Source: Candidatus Eiseniibacteriota bacterium
GTDB taxonomy: Bacteria; Eisenbacteria; RBG-16-71-46; CAVPCR01
Direction of reading: 5' to 3'
NCBI GenBank assembly: GCA_963823555.1
Contig: CAWGMA010000002.1
Location: forward strand, 320,001 to 384,000
Length of the DNA stretch: 64,000 nucleotides
Positions 54,219-64,000 of this stretch are shown piece by piece (position 1 is the first letter of the stretch; each line of letters opens with the position of its first letter). The notes under the pieces are model-generated. The model saw nothing but the letters and a program-made list of their open reading frames with translations, was not told where the DNA came from and made no database searches. The translations under genes and the position numbers were made by a program.

Positions 54219-54340
54219 ACCCCGCATCGGAGGAAGGACCTTGAGCGCCGCGTCCCGTTCCACCCCATTGTGCCGGACCTGGCGATGTGGAATCATCGCA
54301 GCTCAAGCTGCATCCGGCTCTGATTCGCGCAGGAGAGAGC

Positions 54341-55069
54341 ATGACGCCGAGCAGGACTACCTCCCGCAGAGCCGGAGGGCTCGCCGCCGACATCCGATCC
54401 TTCGTTCTCCGCAGACCGCCCATCCCAACGCTGATCAAGTTCGACACCGAGGAGGCGAGGGAGGACTACAGCCAGCGCATCGCCCAGCGCATCGGCATCG
54501 ACGTCACGCAGTACGCGATCCTGAACGTCCACCGGATCGGCATCGATGCGCCGGTCAGCCTCGTCTTCGAGGAGCTCCAGCGGTGGGATGGTCGGCCCTC
54601 CTACTGGCCGAATCGGATCGTGAGCGTCGAGCGGGCGCAGGGAAGGCGGGGACATCTGCAGTTCTTCCTGCTCGGCAAGAAGGACTCTCTCTTCGGGATC
54701 AGGAACAGGTCTCTCGGGTTCGACTTCATCCCGCTGTTCCTGATGGATGTCGTGGATGTGCGGCATCTGCCGGCCGAATCCAATTTCGACAACGCGCGAT
54801 ACGTCCTGTATGAATGCAGCGGTGGCTATCCGGTGGGGATCTGCGGCATCTACGTCCGCTCACCGATCGCGAATCTCGGTGAAACGGCGCGCGCCCAGAT
54901 GTTCTTTGCCGTCGGGTTCAACTTCTACGGGAAGAAGAACTGGCCCCGAAAGCACCTCGTCAATGGGATATGGGAAGCGATCCACAACCGGGTTACATCC
55001 AATGTGCTCAACCGGTTCAAGATCGAATGCGAAGAGAACTTTCGGAGAATACGGGACGAGTCAGATTGA
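54341..55069 (+). CDS. Hypothetical protein (possibly SRPBCC-like fold)
   Basis: AGGAGAG RBS; normal protein composition; RIGIDAPVSLVFEEL resembles the SRPBCC N-terminus. Confidence 0.6.
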   Translation: MTPSRTTSRRAGGLAADIRSFVLRRPPIPTLIKFDTEEAREDYSQRIAQRIGIDVTQYAILNVHRIGIDAPVSLVFEELQRWDGRPSYWPNRIVSVERAQGRRGHLQFFLLGKKDSLFGIRNRSLGFDFIPLFLMDVVDVRHLPAESNFDNARYVLYECSGGYPVGICGIYVRSPIANLGETARAQMFFAVGFNFYGKKNWPRKHLVNGIWEAIHNRVTSNVLNRFKIECEENFRRIRDESD

Positions 55070-55084
55070 CCCCCATACTCCGGC

Positions 55085-56887
55085 CTATTGCTCGCCGATG
55101 ACCGCCTTGAGGCGGGCGATTCTCGCGTTGACCTCGGGGATGGTGAGATCGTGGAAGCGCTCGGGGAGGAAGCGAGCGTCCGTGCATTCCTTGACGGCGA
55201 GCAGGTCCATGAGCTCGAGCCGCTCGGTGTGCGCCGAGGGGCGGATGTCCGTGATCACCTCGGCGATGACCTGCTCAAGCTCTCGCCGCGGCTCCCCCTC
55301 GGGCTGGGTCTCGTAGACGCGCAGGGCGCGGACGAGGATGCCCTCCATCTCGTTGCCGCCGATCTGGTCGTTGTCGGGAAGGGGGGGCAGGTCCGCGACA
55401 GCGATGGGCATCTTGAGCTTCCTCGCCATGGCGGCGAAGAGCTCCTTGCGGGCCTCGGGTGTTCCCGGCGGAAAGAGCGGGATGTGCACGTCGAGACGGC
55501 CCTGGCGCTTCAGGTCCACCTCGAGGAGATCGGGACGCGAGGTGGCGAAGATCCAGATGATCTTGCCGCGGTTCTGGGTGTCGCTCATCTCCCGCGCCAT
55601 CATGGCGTAGACGCGCCCGGAGAGCCCCGAGTCGCCCTCGCCTCCGCCGCCGCGCCGTCCCATGGCCTGGTCGGCCTCGTCGACGAAGACGATCACCTGG
55701 CCGAGCGCATGCAAGATCGAGAACACCTTTTCCAGGTTGCCCTCGGTGGCCCCGACCCACTTCTCGCGGAAGTTCTTGAGCTCGACACAGGGGATGCCGA
55801 TCTCGCCGGCCAGGCACTCGACGAGGTAGGTCTTGCCGGTTCCGATGCGGCCGGTGATGAGGTATCCCATCGGGATCGCGGCGCTCACGCCCTTCCGGAG
55901 CAGTACCGCGTCCTGGCGGAGCCAGGCCTTGGCCTCCTCGTGCCCGGCCACGTCGTCGAGCGTGCGCCTGGACTCGATGAAGTCGAGCCGCCCGAAGGCC
56001 TCCTTCTCGATCGTCTCCTTCTTGACGCGGGTCAGGTAGGCCCCGGTGAGTCGCTCTCGATCCGCCCGGGCGCGGAGGAGCAGCGTGCGCACGCTCACGC
56101 GCGACAGGCCCACCAGGCGCTCGCCGAGGACCGGAGCGCCGAACTCGCTGAGCACGCTCACATCGCCCAGGTCCCTGGTGAGGAAGGCAATGAAATCGCT
56201 GAGCTCGGCGGCGGTCGGGAGCTCGATCTTGATCTTGGCCGAGTATGGGCTCTCGACCAGCATGCGGTTGAGATCGGCGAGATTCTCGGTCAGGAGCGCT
56301 GTGACGGCGAAGGAGCTCGTGATTGCCGGATCGGAACCCCAGTCGATGAGCTGGATCAACGTCTGGCTCAGATCGGCGAGATACAAGGGGTCGCCCTGGG
56401 GGGCGATGAAGTGCGCGTAGTCGATGACCACCGCAACCCGGAGCGGATCGGCCACCGCCTTTCCGTCCACCACCCGGGTGCGGGCGAGCGCCCCGCGCAG
56501 GAAGCGGTCGATGAGCTCGAGCGCGCGCTTGGGATCGCGCGGCAGGAGACCGGAGAGGTCGAGCATCGCCGCCTTGTCCGGTCCGACCGCGGGCAGCGAG
56601 GACCAGCTCGTGCCCTCGAAGGCGTCGAAGGCCTTCAGGAAGCGCTGGAAAGTCTCGGCCCCCTTGAGGACGCGGATGCCCTTGCCGCGGTCGTAGTACA
56701 CCACGACCTCGAAGGGGTCGAACATGACTTCGGTCAAGAAGCGGCGGAGCGAGAGATAGTCCTCCCCGCCGGGGGCGGGTACGAGGTCGAAGATGTTGCC
56801 GTGGAGAATGAACTGGCTCGTCGTGCCGGCGCGGAAGATGGAGCGCATCTCCTCCGCCCACGGTGCCAGTTCGTGATCGCGTGTCAT
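55085..56887 (-). CDS. Classical-clade AAA+ ATPase with a degenerate N-terminal AAA-like domain
   Basis: Walker A GRIGTGKT, pore loop KWVGATE, Walker B VFVDEAD, arginine finger RQGRLD. Confidence 0.9.
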   Translation of the reverse strand: MTRDHELAPWAEEMRSIFRAGTTSQFILHGNIFDLVPAPGGEDYLSLRRFLTEVMFDPFEVVVYYDRGKGIRVLKGAETFQRFLKAFDAFEGTSWSSLPAVGPDKAAMLDLSGLLPRDPKRALELIDRFLRGALARTRVVDGKAVADPLRVAVVIDYAHFIAPQGDPLYLADLSQTLIQLIDWGSDPAITSSFAVTALLTENLADLNRMLVESPYSAKIKIELPTAAELSDFIAFLTRDLGDVSVLSEFGAPVLGERLVGLSRVSVRTLLLRARADRERLTGAYLTRVKKETIEKEAFGRLDFIESRRTLDDVAGHEEAKAWLRQDAVLLRKGVSAAIPMGYLITGRIGTGKTYLVECLAGEIGIPCVELKNFREKWVGATEGNLEKVFSILHALGQVIVFVDEADQAMGRRGGGGEGDSGLSGRVYAMMAREMSDTQNRGKIIWIFATSRPDLLEVDLKRQGRLDVHIPLFPPGTPEARKELFAAMARKLKMPIAVADLPPLPDNDQIGGNEMEGILVRALRVYETQPEGEPRRELEQVIAEVITDIRPSAHTERLELMDLLAVKECTDARFLPERFHDLTIPEVNARIARLKAVIGEQ

Positions 56888-56890
56888 GGA

Positions 56891-57820
56891 CTAGGCCCTT
56901 TCCCGGCCCCGCCTGGGCGGCGGTGGAGGTGGCGATGGTTCCGGCTCGGCCGGGATGCGGGGCTCGCCGAGCCGCGGCAGGAGCGGACCGCCCTCACCCA
57001 GCTCGTCGCCAGCAAGCGTGCCGAAGATCTCCGCGTTCTGCTCCATCCAGCGCGATGTCTCGGCCAGGGTCTGACTCACGGCGTCGAGCCGTGCCGAGAG
57101 CACCTCGGGCCCGCCGGAAACCGCGGTCTCCTCGCGGATCAGGCGCACCTGCCGCTCGATGCGCTGGAGCTCGGCGTCGATCACCTCGAGGCTCGTTCCG
57201 GCCCGCTCGAGATTGGCGAGGCGCTTGGTCTGGATGTCGAGCGTGGCCTCGAGCGAGCGCGCGAGCGGGCTTCCTGCCGGAGCGGAGGCGAGTCGCGCCT
57301 TCAGCCCATCGATGTCCGCCGCGAGCATCTCCGGATCCACCTGCGCCAGGTTGGTGCGGATCACCTGCTGGGAGACGAGGAGGCGGAGGAAGAGCGCGAG
57401 CAAGCTGTTGAGACTGCCTGCGCGCAGGTCCTCGAGCGTGCCCGCCTCGTTCCGTTCGCGGGTGGGCGCGATACCGAGGATGAGCCCGCATTCGTTGAGG
57501 AGCCGGCGGTAGCGGGCGCGCGCCTCGGGGACCAGCTGCTCCAACGTCTCCTGCACGCGCTCGTCGGTGCCGCGCTGACGTCGAGCGAGGAGCTCGCCCT
57601 CGACGACCTTCTGGAAGCGCGGGTTCGCAGACAGCCAGCCGAGGTAGGACAGCTCAGCGGCCGCACCCAGGAGCCAGAAACCGGGATTAACGAGTCCGAG
57701 GACGCCAAAGGCGACGAGCCCCATCTGGTTGAGCGGCATCCGTCCGAGAAGCGGAATCGGATGCGGATGCCGGAAAGCGGCCTTGACGTAATCCCAGTAG
57801 GTCAGGGGCTGGTTCGCCAT
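56891..57820 (-). CDS. Membrane-anchored coiled-coil protein
   Basis: Two short N-terminal hydrophobic segments followed by long heptad-rich helices. Confidence 0.75.
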   Translation of the reverse strand: MANQPLTYWDYVKAAFRHPHPIPLLGRMPLNQMGLVAFGVLGLVNPGFWLLGAAAELSYLGWLSANPRFQKVVEGELLARRQRGTDERVQETLEQLVPEARARYRRLLNECGLILGIAPTRERNEAGTLEDLRAGSLNSLLALFLRLLVSQQVIRTNLAQVDPEMLAADIDGLKARLASAPAGSPLARSLEATLDIQTKRLANLERAGTSLEVIDAELQRIERQVRLIREETAVSGGPEVLSARLDAVSQTLAETSRWMEQNAEIFGTLAGDELGEGGPLLPRLGEPRIPAEPEPSPPPPPPRRGRERA

Positions 57821-57826
57821 GGCTCG

Positions 57827-58678
57827 TCAGGTGGTGCCCGCCTCCAGGGCCCGGAACGCCGCCGCCACCTCGCCCACCGCCGCCTTGAAGCTCGACGTCT
57901 CCTGCACCAGGAGGGGATCCGAGTCGCGCGTCGGCGGGATGATGTCGGCGAACTCGTTGCCGATGCGGCCCGGAGCCGGGGTGATGATCCAGACCCGATC
58001 GCCCAGGTAGACCGCCTCGGCGATCGAGTGGGTGACGATGAAGACCGTGGCCTCGACCTCGTGCCAGAGCTCCATGATAAGCCGCTGCATCTCGTAGCGG
58101 GTAGGCTCATCGAGCGCCGAGAACGGCTCGTCCATCAAGAGGATCTTGGGCTTGAGCGCCAGCGCCCGGGCGATGGCCACCCGCTGTTGCTGCCCGCCGG
58201 AGAGCTGGTGCGGGTACTTCTTCTCGTGCTCGACGAGTCCCACTCGGTGCAACCAGTCGCGCGCGACATCCACCATGGCCGGCCGGCTGAGGCCGAGCTC
58301 GTGCTGGTTCAGCTCGAGTCCGAAGGTGACGTTCTCGAGGACGGTGCGCTGCGGGAACGAGCTGTACTTCTGGAAGATCATGCCGCGGTCGCGGCCCGGC
58401 CCGGTGACGATCCGCCCGCGCACGCGCACTTCTCCGGTGGTCGGCGGATAGACGTCATCAAAGCCGTGAATGAGATTCAGGATGGTGGACTTGCCGCAGC
58501 CGGAGGGCCCGACGATGGCGATGAACTCGCCGTAGCCTGGCCTGTCATCGACGCGGAAGGTCAGGTCCTTGATCGCGGTGAACGCGCGCGCGGTTCCCGG
58601 GTTGAAGGTCTTCGATACCGCCCGGAACTCGACGACCGGTTCGCTCGCAGCGGCGGGTGCGGCACCGGCGGCGGTCAT
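57827..58678 (-). CDS. ABC transporter ATP-binding protein (TauB/SsuB-like)
   Basis: GPSGCGKST, LSGGQQQR and LLMDEPFSALD motifs; ATGA overlap with the permease. Confidence 0.93.
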   Translation of the reverse strand: MTAAGAAPAAASEPVVEFRAVSKTFNPGTARAFTAIKDLTFRVDDRPGYGEFIAIVGPSGCGKSTILNLIHGFDDVYPPTTGEVRVRGRIVTGPGRDRGMIFQKYSSFPQRTVLENVTFGLELNQHELGLSRPAMVDVARDWLHRVGLVEHEKKYPHQLSGGQQQRVAIARALALKPKILLMDEPFSALDEPTRYEMQRLIMELWHEVEATVFIVTHSIAEAVYLGDRVWIITPAPGRIGNEFADIIPPTRDSDPLLVQETSSFKAAVGEVAAAFRALEAGTT

Positions 58679-59541
58679 CGCCGCGACTCCTGCCATGGGA
58701 AGAGGCGGCTGCCGATCGCCGCCCACAGCTTGTCGGTGAGGAAGGCGACGCCGACGATGATCAGGAGCACCAGATAGATGTGCTCGCGCGGCCCGCGCCG
58801 CTGCGACGTGATGATGATCCCGCCCAGGCCCTTGCCGATGTCCACCATCTCGGCGAGCAGGATGTAGCTCCAGCCGACGCCGAACCCGAGCCGGAGCGCC
58901 TCGAAGATCCGGGGCCATGCCACCGGGAGCAGGACCTGGCGCACGGCCTGCGCGCGCGAGGCGCCGAGCGTGTAGGCGGTCTTCAAGTAGATGTCGTCCA
59001 CCGAGTCGACGGCGGCGACGATGAGCGGCAAGAGGTAGATGCCGAAGGCCAGCGCGAGAAAGACGACCTTCTGCAGCTCCCCGGTTCCGAACAGGCTCAA
59101 GGTGAGCGGGACCAGGGTGGGAATGGGCAGATAGGCCCCGAACACGGCGAGCGGCAGGAATGCCGACCGCACCTTGGTGAACGAGCCCATGAGGAGCCCG
59201 AGCGGGAACACGATGGCCACCGCGAGGAGAAAGCCCTCGCTCACCCTGAGGAAGGACACGAGGAGATTGCGCATGACGGCGCGATCGAACCACAGCCCGG
59301 GGAACGAGCGGACGACCTCCACCGGGCTCGGCAGGATGGTCGGCGAGATCATGCGGCTCTCGGGTTCGTCGCCGCCGGTGGCGGCGATCCACACCGCGAG
59401 GAGGACCGCCACCGGCATCACACCCAGGATCCAGGCGAGCCAGGGTGGGATGCGCTCGCGAATGCGGAGACCCCACTTGCCGGTGGCGGCAGTTCCCCCG
59501 CCGCTGGTTGCGGCCGCCTCCCGCTCGAGGCGGTCGGTCAC
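58675..59541 (-). CDS. ABC transporter permease (TauC/SsuC-like)
   Basis: ILPSPVEV and EAA-like AYTLGAS motifs; multiple TM helices. Confidence 0.92.
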   Translation of the reverse strand: MTDRLEREAAATSGGGTAATGKWGLRIRERIPPWLAWILGVMPVAVLLAVWIAATGGDEPESRMISPTILPSPVEVVRSFPGLWFDRAVMRNLLVSFLRVSEGFLLAVAIVFPLGLLMGSFTKVRSAFLPLAVFGAYLPIPTLVPLTLSLFGTGELQKVVFLALAFGIYLLPLIVAAVDSVDDIYLKTAYTLGASRAQAVRQVLLPVAWPRIFEALRLGFGVGWSYILLAEMVDIGKGLGGIIITSQRRGPREHIYLVLLIIVGVAFLTDKLWAAIGSRLFPWQESRR

Positions 59542-61271
59542 TGGGCCTCCGGCGGGTAGACCGCGATCTCCACTCGGCGGTTGAGCGCCTGGTTCAGGGG
59601 ATCATCGGGATCAGCCGGCTCGTCCCAGGCCTTGCCCTCGACCGCGAACTTGTCGGGCTCGAACTTGAACTTCTTGACGAGCGCCTGCTTCACGGCATTG
59701 GCCCGGTCGAGAGAGAGCTGCTGCACATCCTCGTAGCGCACCCCGCGCTCCCGCATCGAGGAGTCCGTATGGCCGAGGATCGCGATCACCGAGCGATCGT
59801 ACTGCCCGACCAGGCGGGCCACCTTCTCGAGCGTGGCGTCGATCGCGGGATCGTAGAGCGTGTTGGCCACCGCATTGCCCAGCTCGTCGTGCTGGGGCTC
59901 GTAGAGATTGGCCGAGTTCGGATAGAAGTTGATGCGGATGGTCTGGGTGACGATCGGCGCCTCGGCGGAGAGCTTCTTGTAGCTCGTCGGGACGAAGGCG
60001 GCGCGACCGGCGTCCGGCTGGTGCTTGAAGGCGCCTTCCTGGTCGAGCTGCTTCAAGACCGAGAAGTCCATCACCTCGTCGAAGCGGGCCGGGGTTCCGA
60101 TCAGCCCGAGCTCCCGGTAGACGAAGTTGATGTTCTTCCAGCTCCGCTCGAAGTTGGTCGGACTGTTGGCGTTGAGGAAGAAGTCCTTGTTCTCGGCGAA
60201 GTTGGTCGAATGGGCGTCCTGGACCATGCCACCGATCTCGTCGACCGGCATGCCGTAACCCTCGGCCATCCACTGGAAGGCCTTTGCCTTGAACGTGCCG
60301 TCGCCCAGTAGGTCCATGCCCTTGAAGATGCCCGCCACCAGGCCCTTCATGATCTCCGGGTGGTCCTTGGCGAAGTCGGCCCGTGCCGCCCACACGTCGG
60401 CGATCAGCTTGTTGGCCTCGGCGGTGGTGGTGAGGATGCGGGTGCCGGGGACCTTGTCCGGGATGTTGTAGATGTCGGGCGCCCACGACACGCAGGCATC
60501 GATCTTCTTGTCAGCGACGAAGGCCGCCGCCGCCTCGAAGGCTGTGGCCGTGTACTTGTGCTTCACGGTGGCGGGCTGGACGCCGGCGGCGAGCAGCAGA
60601 TTGTTGATGAAGTACTGGGAAGGGCTGTTCTGGGCGTAGACCACCGTCTTGCCCTTCAAGTCCCGCACCGATTCGATGCCGCCGCGGACGACGATGCCGT
60701 CGCCGCCGCTCGACCAGTCGATCTGCTGGTAGACGCGCGGCGCGGTGCGCGAATCCTTCATGAGGTCGGGCGCGAACAGCGCGATCATGTCGAGGGTGCC
60801 CCACAGGATGTGGCTCTCGCCGGCGGCGAAGGCGTCGCGCGCCACCACTGGATCGTCGACCAGCTTCAGATTCACCTTGAAGCCGTAGTCCTTGTAGAAG
60901 ACGGATTCGGTGTTGGGGGCGAAGCCGTGATTGGCCGCCACGATCGGCAGCCAGCCGATCCAGACGTTGATCGGGAACTGGACGATCTTCTCGCTGGCAT
61001 CCCACTTGTAATTGGAGACGCCCTTGACCGGCGGCAGCTTCTCGGCCGGCACGTAGGTGTACTCGTTGACCGTCGTGATGCCCTTGGTGTCCGGGGCCTC
61101 GACCTTGCCCGCCTGGTCCTTGTAGGCATCCAGGTCGATTTCCGACTGCCCCTCCTTGCCGGCGGGCAGGAGCGCATCGCGGAAGAAGTAGATGGCGCCG
61201 GCGATCAGGGCCAGGATGAAGAGCACGATCACCAGCCTGCCGAGGCCGGTGGGTCCCACCTTGTCCGCCAT
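59538..61271 (-). CDS. Membrane-anchored NMT1/SsuA-type solute-binding protein fused to an OmpA-like peptidoglycan-binding domain
   Basis: N-terminal TM; DWSSGGDGIV..DLKGK; C-terminal GHTDS..LSLDRANAVK..NRRVE. Confidence 0.88.
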   Translation of the reverse strand: MADKVGPTGLGRLVIVLFILALIAGAIYFFRDALLPAGKEGQSEIDLDAYKDQAGKVEAPDTKGITTVNEYTYVPAEKLPPVKGVSNYKWDASEKIVQFPINVWIGWLPIVAANHGFAPNTESVFYKDYGFKVNLKLVDDPVVARDAFAAGESHILWGTLDMIALFAPDLMKDSRTAPRVYQQIDWSSGGDGIVVRGGIESVRDLKGKTVVYAQNSPSQYFINNLLLAAGVQPATVKHKYTATAFEAAAAFVADKKIDACVSWAPDIYNIPDKVPGTRILTTTAEANKLIADVWAARADFAKDHPEIMKGLVAGIFKGMDLLGDGTFKAKAFQWMAEGYGMPVDEIGGMVQDAHSTNFAENKDFFLNANSPTNFERSWKNINFVYRELGLIGTPARFDEVMDFSVLKQLDQEGAFKHQPDAGRAAFVPTSYKKLSAEAPIVTQTIRINFYPNSANLYEPQHDELGNAVANTLYDPAIDATLEKVARLVGQYDRSVIAILGHTDSSMRERGVRYEDVQQLSLDRANAVKQALVKKFKFEPDKFAVEGKAWDEPADPDDPLNQALNRRVEIAVYPPEAQ

Positions 61272-61315
61272 GTTTCAGTCTCCTTCCAGCGCAGCGTCCC
61301 CCGGAGGATGCCGCG

Positions 61316-62074
61316 TTACGACTCCTGGACCTGAGGGCCCATGTCCTTGGCCGGCGGTATCGAAGCCGGCCCCGCGGCGGTTCCTTCCGCCGGTGGCAGC
61401 TCGAGCCCGTAGCTCGCCGCAAACTCGGTGAGGGCTTGCTCGGCGAGTACCTGCTGCTCCGCTTCCATGAGCTCCACCTTGGAGGTGTCGATGGTGGTCG
61501 CGGCCACCCGGGTGCGGCCCGCCGCCTTGTCCCGCCGTTCCGTCAGGTATTCCTCGACGCGGTTCAACGTATCGCCGGAGCCGCCGATCGAGGTCACCAT
61601 GCCGGTGGCCATCTCCTGCAGCTCGGCCTGGGCCTCGAGCATCTCGGTCTCGGTGAGGAGGCGCTTCAGCTTCTCGATCTTGGCCTGCGCCTCCTTGACC
61701 GCCACATCGCGCGCCTGGACGAGCTTCTTGAAGGTCTCCTCGGCAGTCTGCAGCTGCGCGCGGTTCTCCTCGAGCTGCTCCTTCACGGTCTTGAGCTGGA
61801 GCGCGTACTGGGCGGCGGCGTTGCGGTTCCCTACCTTCAAGTTGGCCGCAGCCTTGGCCGCCAGGTCGCGCTCCTGCGCCTCGAGGTTCTTGACCTGGCG
61901 CAGGAGCCGTTCGGTGAAACCGGCATGCACGGCGAGATTGTCGTTGTAGCGGGCGATCTGCTGGCGCAGGTTTTCCTTCTCGACCTCGAGCAAGGCCCGG
62001 GGATTCTGGCGCTCGATGCCGGAGATGAAGAGGCCGACAAATCCCCGGATCAGGTTGGAAATGCGCATCCACAT
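61316..62074 (-). CDS. pspA: PspA/IM30 (ESCRT-III-like) family protein
   Basis: Amphipathic MWMRISNLIRGFV N-terminus, ERQNPRALLE motif, long coiled coil. Confidence 0.85.
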   Translation of the reverse strand: MWMRISNLIRGFVGLFISGIERQNPRALLEVEKENLRQQIARYNDNLAVHAGFTERLLRQVKNLEAQERDLAAKAAANLKVGNRNAAAQYALQLKTVKEQLEENRAQLQTAEETFKKLVQARDVAVKEAQAKIEKLKRLLTETEMLEAQAELQEMATGMVTSIGGSGDTLNRVEEYLTERRDKAAGRTRVAATTIDTSKVELMEAEQQVLAEQALTEFAASYGLELPPAEGTAAGPASIPPAKDMGPQVQES

Positions 62075-62164
62075 GGCGGGCTCCTTTGCCGGGCTTTCCT
62101 GCCGGGAGCTCCTCGGCCGGATGGTGCCGGCAACTCGTACGAACCTGACTGCCGCGGGCGGCGG

Positions 62165-62194
62165 ATTATCCGCAGAGCCCCAAGGCAGTGTCAA
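62165..62194 (-). promoter_or_regulatory. sigma70-type promoter of the pspA operon
   Basis: TTGACA-18bp-GATAAT. Confidence 0.5.
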
Positions 62195-62446: not shown

Positions 62447-64000
62447 CTAATGCAGCAAGAGCATCCTGCGCTGCGCCACTTCGCCGCCCACCTCGAGCCG
62501 ATAGAGGTAGATGCCGCTGGGCAAGGACGTGGCCCCATCGGTGCGACCGTCCCACTGGACCTCATGATTCCCGGCAGCGAGCGTCCCGCCCACGAGCCGC
62601 CGGACGAGCCGCCCGCTGACGTCGTAGATGTCGAGCCGTGCATCTCCCGCCTCGGGCAACGCGAACTCGATCCGCGTGCCGCCGCGGAAGGGATTCGGCT
62701 CGTTCTGGGCGAGAGCGAGCCGCACCGCGGGAGCGGCACCCGGGGAGACCGCGGTGGGCGAGCCCTGCACGGTGAGCACCGCGATGCCGCGGCTCAGGCA
62801 GCTCATCCACAGCTCGTAGCCGCCGGGGATCTCGCGCACCTCCAGGTCCTCGATGGAGCTGTGCGGCAGGCCGCCCCACTGCGGCTCGCCGCCGGGAGGC
62901 GCGGGGAATGAGCCGATGTTCGTCCCGTCATACCAGCACAGTCCCGCGTCGTTCGACGGGTACTCGCTGTCGTACTGCATCCACAGGCGACCATCCGGCG
63001 TGACCGCCATCGGACGCACGTGTTCGCCGGGGAAGGGCCAGCCCTGATCATGCTCGAACATCTGGTAGGAGCCCGTGTTGGCATCGAGACGGATCAGGGT
63101 GCTGCCGGTGCTCGTGAACTGCGTCCACGTTCCGATCCAGGCAATACCGTCGGGCTCGGTGGCAAGGCCAGTGAACCATGTCCCTGATCCGGGGAAGTCG
63201 CCGATGGAACGCGAGAAGGAGTAGGTCCCGTCGGTGCGCAGCAGCTCGTAGTCCGTTGCCGCCCACACGGTGCCTGGGCGTGTTGGGTCCCTCTGGATCT
63301 TGAGGCCCCATCCCGTGATCGGCGCTGAGGTCCAGCCGGTCCCGTCGTGATAATTGAGCGCGAAGTACTCCCCCAGAGCCCATAGTCGGCCGAGCGAATC
63401 CTCGCACATGCGCTCCGCGCCGCCCAGCGATGGGAGCGGGTTGAAGCCCGAGCCGGTCCACTCGTGGATCCCGTAGAGCCAGTCGAGCGGCGAGACCGCG
63501 ACGCGCCCATTGGAGGGTCGATAAGCAAGCGCGGTGCAGAAGTCGTTGGGGAACGGCCAGTCGTACCCGAGGCCATAGGTGAGCGGATTCCATCCCGTCC
63601 AGCGTGCCCCATCGAAACGCACCATCCCCCCGATTCCAGAACCGGCATTGGCCCCTGTGTACATGTAGCCGTTGACGGGGTCGATGGTCAGGTCGCGGTT
63701 GAACTGGTCGAAGTTGGCTGTGTTGGTGATGCGGTAGCGTTGCCACTGGCCGGTCTGCACATTCCATCTTGCCGCCCCTCCGGTCCCGCAAACCCAGACG
63801 TTCCCGGCGGCATCGATGTCCACGCTCTGGGTGTTCTGCCCCGGGCGCCAGATGCCCAGACCTACCCAGCTGGTGCCGTTGAACTGATAGACGGTGCCCA
63901 CGCCGTCGACGAGGAGTGCGCGGCGATCCCCATAGGCCTTGAAGGCCCAGGTGTCGAACGTCACGCCGTAGTAGGGCTCCGGGACCGTGACCCAGGTGCC
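62447..64000 (-). CDS. Beta-propeller repeat protein + FlgD-Ig domain (5' end outside the window)
   Basis: DxxGxxWxG repeats; PNPF...YDVSGRLVRRL...WDGR..SGIYLYRL; the frame stays open to the window edge. Confidence 0.8.
   Translation of the reverse strand, partial: GTWVTVPEPYYGVTFDTWAFKAYGDRRALLVDGVGTVYQFNGTSWVGLGIWRPGQNTQSVDIDAAGNVWVCGTGGAARWNVQTGQWQRYRITNTANFDQFNRDLTIDPVNGYMYTGANAGSGIGGMVRFDGARWTGWNPLTYGLGYDWPFPNDFCTALAYRPSNGRVAVSPLDWLYGIHEWTGSGFNPLPSLGGAERMCEDSLGRLWALGEYFALNYHDGTGWTSAPITGWGLKIQRDPTRPGTVWAATDYELLRTDGTYSFSRSIGDFPGSGTWFTGLATEPDGIAWIGTWTQFTSTGSTLIRLDANTGSYQMFEHDQGWPFPGEHVRPMAVTPDGRLWMQYDSEYPSNDAGLCWYDGTNIGSFPAPPGGEPQWGGLPHSSIEDLEVREIPGGYELWMSCLSRGIAVLTVQGSPTAVSPGAAPAVRLALAQNEPNPFRGGTRIEFALPEAGDARLDIYDVSGRLVRRLVGGTLAAGNHEVQWDGRTDGATSLPSGIYLYRLEVGGEVAQRRMLLLH

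Follow-up and report, generated by a model that had tools for sequence, protein, structure and literature searches.

Organisation of the gene cluster

The cluster lies on the minus strand of a 64,000-nucleotide window, the whole stretch of Candidatus Eiseniibacteriota DNA that was analysed, and comprises six open reading frames in the order pspA, SBP-OmpA, permease, ABC ATPase, coiled-coil protein and AAA ATPase. The intergenic spacing along the cluster is 44, -4, -4, 6 and 3 bp, in agreement with the tight packing reported in the initial annotation of this DNA. The first gene, pspA (61316..62074), encodes a protein of 252 aa and begins with an ATG that follows an AAGGAG site. Its product matched the Pfam family PF04012 with 37.7 bits against a cut-off of 33.9, and the profile of its family matched Vipp1 chains among solved structures at an E-value of 3e-11, which supports the earlier assignment of the protein to PspA/IM30 of the ESCRT-III superfamily. 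A profile search found it to be the sole PF04012 match in this genome.

A sigma-70-type promoter-like site, TTGACA-18-GATAAT, is located ~90 nt upstream of the pspA start (62165..62194, minus strand) and agrees with the consensus at 11 of 12 positions. Such sites number one per 9 kb here against a mean of 0.7 (sd 0.8) in shuffled sequences, which is no excess, and a comparable element was found 5' of pspA in four of eight close loci. A longer pspA frame of 292 aa, opening with a TTG at 62194, was rejected in favour of the ATG at 62074 because the alignments of homologues begin at this ATG and because the TTG at 62194 belongs to the -35 box.

The second gene (59538..61271) encodes SBP-OmpA, a 577-aa membrane-anchored solute-binding protein of the NMT1/SsuA/TauA type with a C-terminal OmpA-like domain. 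Pfam recognised both NMT1 and OmpA, an N-terminal hydrophobic segment is present, and the PDB matches were Omp38, SsuA and TauA. D503 and R523 are conserved in at least 90% of 41 homologues, and the OmpA-like domain is predicted to bind peptidoglycan. The permease (58675..59541, 288 aa, BPD_transp_1) has six hydrophobic segments and is TauC/SsuC/SaoP-like, its best NCBIfam matches being SaoP and TauC, both under the cut-off. The TauB/SsuB-like ABC ATPase (57827..58678, 283 aa, ABC_tran at 106 bits) has an intact Walker A, signature, Walker B and H-loop, and these motifs are conserved in 14 aligned sequences. All NCBIfam equivalog cut-offs were missed (for example, TauC 99 against 342 and TauB 200 against 357). 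The three genes together have the composition of TauABC/SsuABC importers, namely an NMT1-type binding protein, a BPD_transp_1 permease and a TauB-like ATPase with intact motifs, but the binding protein differs in being membrane-anchored and fused to OmpA. The last two genes encode a membrane-anchored helical-bundle or coiled-coil protein of 309 aa (56891..57820) and an AAA ATPase of 600 aa (55085..56887).

The identical six genes in identical order appear in Table S3, row OGG56892.1, of Ravi et al. 2024 (mSystems, PMC11237479), which bears out the statement in the initial annotation that similar neighbourhoods occur in comparative surveys of PspA. In the passages available from that paper, ATP-dependent membrane remodelling comparable to Snf7/Vps4 is proposed from genome context, and the operon has the same inactive-plus-active two-AAA architecture as the ATPase described below. 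No experimental study of a PspA/two-AAA operon was found in a literature search, with most subscription papers outside its coverage, and the initial annotation likewise knew of none. The cluster is already known as a type, in silico only; what is new is a tag in the PspA tail.

Architecture and family of the AAA ATPase

The assignment of the last gene to the AAA+ ATPases was confirmed by Pfam (AAA, residues 343-470), but the initial annotation had overlooked that the N-terminal half is a second, degenerate AAA module. The ATPase is a headless two-AAA protein whose predicted model aligns end to end with the D1-D2 of Rix7, NVL and Pex1/6, its closest structural matches, and its best PDB sequence matches were VAT and Cdc48. 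Alignment of the model, together with motif columns, assigns D1 to approximately residues 1-295 (56003..56887). The P-loop of D1 reads H-G-N-x-x-D and lacks the Walker A lysine, and there is no acidic pair at Walker B; this AAA fold is predicted to be catalytically inactive. Since D1 begins at about residue 7, the protein has no N domain. It thus shares the tandem D1-D2 fold of the type II AAA unfoldases Cdc48/VAT, Rix7/NVL and Pex1/Pex6 but, unlike Cdc48/p97/VAT, has neither an N domain nor catalytic residues in D1.

D2 (approximately residues 296-600; 55085..56002) is a classical AAA module with Walker A K352, Walker B D403/E404, arginine fingers R461/R464 and sensor-1 S450. K352, D403, E404, R461 and R464 are invariant in 59 of 59 and 87 of 87 aligned rows. 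Pore loop 1 is K376-W377-V378-G379, as noted earlier when a KWVG pore loop of the classical clade was described, and W377 is found in 58 of the 59 rows and V378 in 40. Judged by its sequence, the protein has retained the residues that mark the catalytic site and pore loop of threading ATPases in the classical clade. At sensor-1, asparagine is present in none of the 59 linked ATPases, the residue always being serine, alanine or cysteine; in the available text of PMC5039278, serine is an accepted alternative to asparagine, and alanine and cysteine are absent from the list given there. The inactive D1 and this lack of the sensor-1 asparagine would fit a role other than disassembly, with the ATPase nucleating or capping PspA polymers as an assembly scaffold or a slow nucleotide switch. 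Against this, there is no variation, or almost none, in Walker A, Walker B, both arginine fingers and the aromatic pore loop; unless hydrolysis drives threading, such conservation is difficult to account for, and we consider a switch or scaffold of this kind highly improbable.

The initial annotation had also described the system as Vps4-like, which was not upheld in the sense of family membership. An MIT domain was matched in none of 59 members at E<=0.01, and AAA was the only Pfam domain detected in the ATPase, with no HTH. According to the available parts of PMC5039278 and PMC11188069, a single AAA module follows an N-terminal MIT domain in Vps4, in contrast to the two AAA modules without MIT seen here. 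The ATPase scored 44-45 bits against the CdvC model NF041006, the cut-off of which is 650, whereas an FtsH-like protein of the same genome reached 145 bits; against TIGR01243 (Cdc48 type) it scored 71 bits, with a cut-off of 803. In phylogenetic trees the ATPase family formed its own long-stemmed clade with support of 100/100. A join of this clade to Vps4-like proxies, which were bacterial only and included no archaeal or eukaryotic Vps4 rows, had an SH-aLRT of 91 in the quick tree and was not resolved in the careful tree; 20 of 60 rows were left out of one tree and 36 of 60 out of the other. The phylogenetic check suggested in the initial annotation yielded a distinct clade but no settled position relative to Vps4-like and Cdc48 proteins. 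By domain architecture and model score, the ATPase is not a Vps4. The protein may also resemble Ycf46-type AAA proteins, and a literature search on this resemblance found no paper.

The membrane coiled-coil protein

The model of the coiled-coil protein had a pLDDT of 83.5, with a Pro-rich tail at low confidence. The protein had no Pfam match, and structure comparison gave no clear fold match. It corresponds to the 'TM+Snf7' protein of Ravi et al. 2024, to which a divergent Snf7 domain is ascribed in the passages available (PMC11237479); the Snf7/ESCRT-III homology was not reproduced by our sequence and fold comparisons. In an atlas of language-model features, the protein neighbours PF25587 (PspM/Rv2743c) at 0.87 and 0.84, the neighbour at 0.87 sharing 181 features and carrying the family on 40% of its members. 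The PF25587 HMM gave no match to the coiled-coil gene at E<=10 and also failed to exceed its cut-off in any of 14 control genomes, the family was absent among the 25 families shown for 61 members, and a search for a true PspM sequence returned nothing over the cut-off. PspM/Rv2743c is a lead to the identity of the coiled-coil protein.

The coiled-coil gene stands directly before the ATPase gene in ~47 of the 64 loci that carry it, so that the usual immediate neighbour of the ATPase is the coiled-coil gene and not pspA. A MIM2-like L-P-x-L-P motif in the tail of the coiled-coil protein appeared conserved among close homologues but is not kept in distant ones, and was dropped.

Conservation and co-occurrence

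The ATPase is conserved with pspA in many phyla, as the initial annotation would predict. Among 151 genomes of one phylum, all 19 that have this PspA clade carry the ATPase. In fully flanked loci, pspA was found within 10 kb of the ATPase in 42 of 48, and all six genes occurred together in 18 of 48. PspA and the ATPase form the conserved core of the cluster, and the SBP-OmpA and ABC genes, with the putative sensor role proposed in the initial annotation, are accessory to it. One genome (G129) has the ATPase and coiled-coil gene, with PspA not found, and two Bacillota plasmids carry distant ATPase relatives that lack an annotated pspA within 7 kb.

The gene order has been kept in distant phyla, unlike that of fast-turnover defence loci, which argues against an anti-phage system that works by membrane remodelling. 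PspA is phage-inducible in E. coli, and PADLOC gave weak generic matches to IetA, ZorB and JetC, but these fall on shared AAA, OmpA/MotB and coiled-coil domains. A single-protein query of viral contigs gave 20 pattern matches and no relative of the ATPase. A role in phage defence seems barely credible.

The importer genes could instead be central. The wall-tethered SsuA/TauA-type binding protein and ABC importer would then take up an osmolyte or small anion, while the membrane around the transporter would be assembled or protected by PspA and the ATPase. The intact ABC ATPase motifs, the high conservation of the permease and SBP, the taurine, sulfonate and putative urea importers as nearest families and the link to solute transport suggested in the available passages of Ravi et al. 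2024 (PMC11237479) are consistent with this. However, of 48 fully flanked loci, only 21 carry the permease and ABC genes. With one query each, the cognate permease was not found in four of five genomes where SBP-OmpA has no ABC gene nearby, and SBP-OmpA was not found in five of five genomes with PspA and the ATPase, some of which, as MAGs, may be incomplete. We regard a primary function in import as improbable.

The conserved tag in the PspA tail

After a variable linker, the C-terminal end of PspA carries a short tag, K/R-x-hydrophobic-G-P (residues 243-247; 61334..61348, minus strand). Under a strict pattern, the tag was found in 43 of 59 operon-linked PspAs and in 0 of 29 other PspAs, the latter being members of other clades, and G246 is nearly invariant. 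A looser pattern also matches the helix ends of ordinary PspAs, so the strict pattern alone was used as the contrast. Because tag and ATPase occur together within a single clade, their association may reflect shared ancestry alone. Complex prediction of the PspA tail with the ATPase, which covered residues 196-252 as a whole, gave a weak score of 0.50 without contacts, compared to 0.00 for the best control. Pairwise identities of PspA and the ATPase correlated with a Spearman coefficient of 0.88, which, having no control gene, was not used as evidence of co-evolution. The passages of Ravi et al. 2024 available to us (PMC11237479) name no PspA tail motif. We regard the tag as a new observation and as a candidate docking motif for the ATPase.

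Binding alone would give no direction of action, since in E. coli PspA acts as an inhibitor of the AAA+ protein PspF, to which it binds, as stated in the available part of PMC7619361. PspA might thus be a recruiter or, by the PspF precedent, an inhibitor of the ATPase, and what is threaded might be damaged membrane proteins, the complex of SBP and ABC components or the coiled-coil protein, extracted as by Cdc48, Pex1/6 or Msp1. The position of the coiled-coil gene directly before the ATPase, the Pro-rich, low-confidence tail of its product and an ATPase architecture closest to extractases favour such a substrate. In contrast, seven loci have a PspA-ATPase pair with no coiled-coil or SBP gene in the flanking DNA examined, mostly with the tag, and PspA is the strictest companion of the ATPase among the operon genes profiled genome-wide, a set that excluded the coiled-coil gene. 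On balance, a substrate other than PspA is unlikely.

A proposed model for PspA recycling

The reading we prefer, to which we give about an even chance, is that of a putative six-gene operon in which the ATPase recognises the PspA tag and pulls subunits from PspA polymers, doing the job of Vps4 without being Vps4. It builds on what was observed here, namely the six genes and their joint inheritance, an ATPase of two modules with the catalytic residues of D2 intact, and the conserved tag. Like other PspA/Vipp1 proteins, PspA would polymerise on the inner membrane under stress. The ATPase would form a hexamer in which the inactive D1 ring serves as a docking platform in place of an MIT domain, and the D2 ring would thread the PspA tail through the W-V pore loop, recycling PspA. 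The coiled-coil protein may anchor the PspA/ATPase pair at the membrane, in the way that mycobacterial PspM does, and wall-tethered SBP-OmpA, with or without the ABC importer, may be accessory and serve to position or trigger the core.

The pairing resembles ESCRT-III/Vps4 and CdvB/CdvC in combining an ESCRT-III-superfamily polymer protein that bears a short conserved C-terminal motif with a classical-clade AAA protein that has an aromatic-hydrophobic pore loop. It also resembles E. coli PspF-PspA-PspBC and mycobacterial ClgR-PspA-PspM in joining PspA, a membrane partner and an AAA+ protein, but the ATPase lacks the HTH of PspF, an NtrC-type transcription activator. More tentatively, and with some doubt, bacteria may have arrived at ESCRT-III recycling by a route separate from Vps4. 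In this scheme, a double ring like that of Cdc48 but headless, whose inactive D1 reads the K-x-hydrophobic-G-P tag as a counterpart of MIT-MIM recognition, would disassemble PspA polymers where a wall-tethered binding protein marks the sites. If true, ESCRT-III polymers came to be paired with a threading ATPase on at least two occasions.

On the disassembly of PspA polymers in bacteria, the available part of a 2025 review states that a Vps4-like ATPase appears to be absent there (PMC7619361), and Liu et al. 2021 ask, in the passages available, whether an equivalent ATPase exists (PMC8281802). The PspA/two-AAA operon type is a direct candidate, and the tail tag makes the ATPase-PspA idea testable with two proteins. 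A reduced form of the cluster, consisting of pspA, the coiled-coil gene and the ATPase, is present in cultured carriers such as Gracilimonas mengyeensis DSM 21985 and Fodinibius sp. SL11.

Conservation of PspA with the AAA ATPase

A genome scan with the operon ATPase turned up at least 569 confirmed stretches that encode relatives; we examined the best 80 loci, which fall into 15 named phyla, 13/80 being without a phylum assignment. These 80 loci contain pspA in 62, the coiled-coil gene in 64, the SBP gene in 41, the permease gene in 33, the ABC ATPase gene in 34 and all six genes in 25. In the 48 loci that were fully flanked (at least 7 kb upstream and at least 5 kb downstream), the corresponding counts are 42, 41, 26, 21, 21 and 18. 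For all six fully flanked loci with no nearby pspA, a PspA of the ATPase-linked clade is encoded elsewhere in the genome. In a sample of 151 genomes of one phylum, chosen for its planctomycete locus, 28 matched the ATPase profile at E<=1e-60, 21 of them as core members (E<1e-150). The PspA clade was present in 19/21 genomes with a core ATPase and in 0/130 of the remaining genomes, with pspA and ATPase on separate contigs in 7 of the 19. As for the other two core genomes, a divergent PspA adjoins the ATPase in G037, and a search of G129 for PspA found none. Among 30 relatives of the window's genome, pspA and ATPase are adjacent in three and both absent from 26, and the remaining one has only an ordinary PspA. 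These co-occurrence counts are descriptions rather than tests because kin are not independent. The synteny survey proposed in the initial annotation found the ATPase conserved with pspA in other genomes.

Distant full-length ATPase relatives (~30% identity) are encoded on large Paenibacillus and Aneurinibacillus plasmids (L104:6986-8602 and L105:6719-8296), where none of the genes within 7 kb carries a pspA annotation.

A C-terminal tag in ATPase-linked PspA

In this sample, ordinary PspAs end in an amphipathic helix, and PspAs of the ATPase-linked clade end in a variable Pro/Ala-rich linker followed by a short conserved motif. Among complete proteins of >200 aa, the strict tag, K/R-x-[MILV]-G-P within the last 45 residues, was found in 43/59 linked PspAs, with 57/59 for a broader form. 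In a second set, mainly from genome searches and with four clade members repeating loci of the first, the strict tag occurred in 16/26 clade members, 0/2 intermediate and 0/29 other PspAs. It is kept in five of seven loci whose examined DNA shows PspA and ATPase without coiled-coil or SBP genes. Since tag and ATPase share one clade, inheritance alone could link them.

Co-folding of the ATPase with PspA residues 196-252, part of the modelling suggested in the initial annotation, gave ipSAE values of 0.50, 0.50 and 0.44 compared to 0.00 in three controls, with contact agreement of at least 47% and partner pLDDT of at least 50. In the complex-score benchmark the mark was reached by 116/157 solved and 2/215 mismatched pairs, and the range up to 0.60 held only 18 of the solved pairs, plus both mismatched ones. 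On this benchmark the score is rated weak; the models hint that the PspA tail may bind the ATPase. The tag and this weak structural support are what is new from this analysis.

The most likely reading, to which we give an even chance, is that the ATPase is a dedicated remodelling motor of PspA. Such a motor would bind the PspA tail, pull it through the second, intact AAA module and return PspA from the membrane for reuse; the coiled-coil protein would serve as anchor, and the SBP-OmpA/ABC module would be optional. In the main rival reading, which we consider rather unlikely, PspA would serve to recruit or to inhibit the ATPase, and the substrate would be another protein.

Relation to ESCRT-III/Vps4

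The description of the operon as a Vps4-like system survives as a likeness of working to ESCRT-III/Vps4, which we infer, and fails as a statement of family, the operon ATPase being, by the tests of domain content and model score, not a member of the Vps4 family. The operon belongs to a kind already described in silico: row OGG56892.1 of Table S3 of Ravi et al. has an identical gene order (PMC11237479), in line with the initial annotation, which mentions similar neighbourhoods from comparative surveys of PspA, and a passage of that paper proposes ATP-dependent membrane remodelling comparable to Snf7/Vps4. Neither Vps4 nor OmpA occurs in the main text of Popp et al. 2022 (PMC9239133). In passages of other papers, a 2025 review states that bacteria appear to be without a Vps4-like ATPase (PMC7619361), Liu et al. 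2021 leave the existence of one open (PMC8281802), and a 2026 review looks to Hsp70/J-domain chaperones for the disassembly of Vipp1 (PMC13051332). Our literature search found no published experimental work on this operon, nor does the initial annotation name any.

Two further loci were met. L141:9-3452 (G253:C75), whose homologues are named Kiritimatiellia, encodes an FHA-domain protein and a 367-aa single-AAA ATPase that stays under the cut-off of the CdvC model (E 3e-59). An overlapping coiled-coil ORF of 299 aa is Snf7-like by eye and has no Pfam match; possibly the locus holds a separate bacterial Vps4-like/ESCRT-III-like pair. At L142:1408-3744 (Verrucomicrobiota), a TPR-AAA ATPase adjoins a TPR-plus-TM gene, matching the bacterial 'Vps4-like' context in the Ravi et al. 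survey (PMC11237479); this genome additionally encodes a PspA-linked ATPase.

Operon organisation and the SBP-OmpA/ABC module

The six minus-strand ORFs are as tightly packed as first noted, with spacings of 44, -4, -4, 6 and 3 bp. Pfam named four genes directly (PspA_IM30; NMT1 and OmpA; BPD_transp_1; ABC_tran) and assigned AAA to residues 343-470 of the last, the ATPase; the 309-aa membrane protein had no Pfam match. The start codon of pspA is the ATG at 62074, which a ribosome-binding site precedes. Position 62194, the end given in the initial annotation, is the -35 box of a sigma-70-type site (11/12 matches), and a single site of this kind in 9 kb is within chance; a similar promoter-like element lies 5' of pspA in 4/8 close loci. 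The operon pspA is the sole PF04012 match in its genome, where tblastn (E<=1e-10) gave no further copy of the pspA, SBP, permease or coiled-coil gene; for the ATPase it gave a distant AAA match alone. The closest named genome among the matches listed is a Candidatus Eisenbacteria (ATPase 89% identical).

The SBP has a hydrophobic segment at its N-terminus; its two domains are SsuA/TauA-like and OmpA-like, the latter with conserved G-H-x-D and L-S-x-x-R-A positions, which we take to be peptidoglycan-binding residues. The ABC ATPase motifs are intact, and no equivalog model matched the module above its cut-off. The SBP, permease and ABC genes are accessory and drop out of loci. With the window query, a cognate permease was not found in 4/5 tested genomes keeping SBP-OmpA without a nearby ABC, nor SBP-OmpA in 5/5 tested genomes from reduced forms, MAGs that may be incomplete.

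Upstream, 62447-64000 (minus strand) encodes a beta-propeller protein, apparently unrelated to the operon, whose C-terminal domain is of the FlgD-Ig/secretion-tail type (Pfam). A 260-aa ORF (54287-55069, plus strand) runs towards the end of the operon, with 15 bp between it and the stop codon of the ATPase; it had neither a Pfam nor an NCBIfam match, and no terminator-like site was found between the two.

Operon variants

In ~14 loci an unnamed gene of 200-225 aa, missing from the window operon and without a convincing Pfam match, directly follows the ATPase, mostly between ATPase and pspA (L055:5899-6576, L057:11725-12372 and ~12 others, e.g. L034, L035, L047, L048, L051, L052, L061 and L062). 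In the reduced form of L070-L094 (Balneolota/Bacteroidota), pspA is followed by a helical gene of 155 aa and the coiled-coil gene, and two genes are inserted before the ATPase, first an ORF judged by eye to be enoyl-CoA-hydratase-like, then a CNNM/CBS/CorC gene. The PspA tag of this form is K-[TS]-[VIL]-G, lacking the Pro. Two to three SBP or SBP-OmpA paralogues each are found at L022, L024, L028, L033, L054 and L081, and at the first four of these loci the permease and ABC ATPase ORFs exceed the window's in length.
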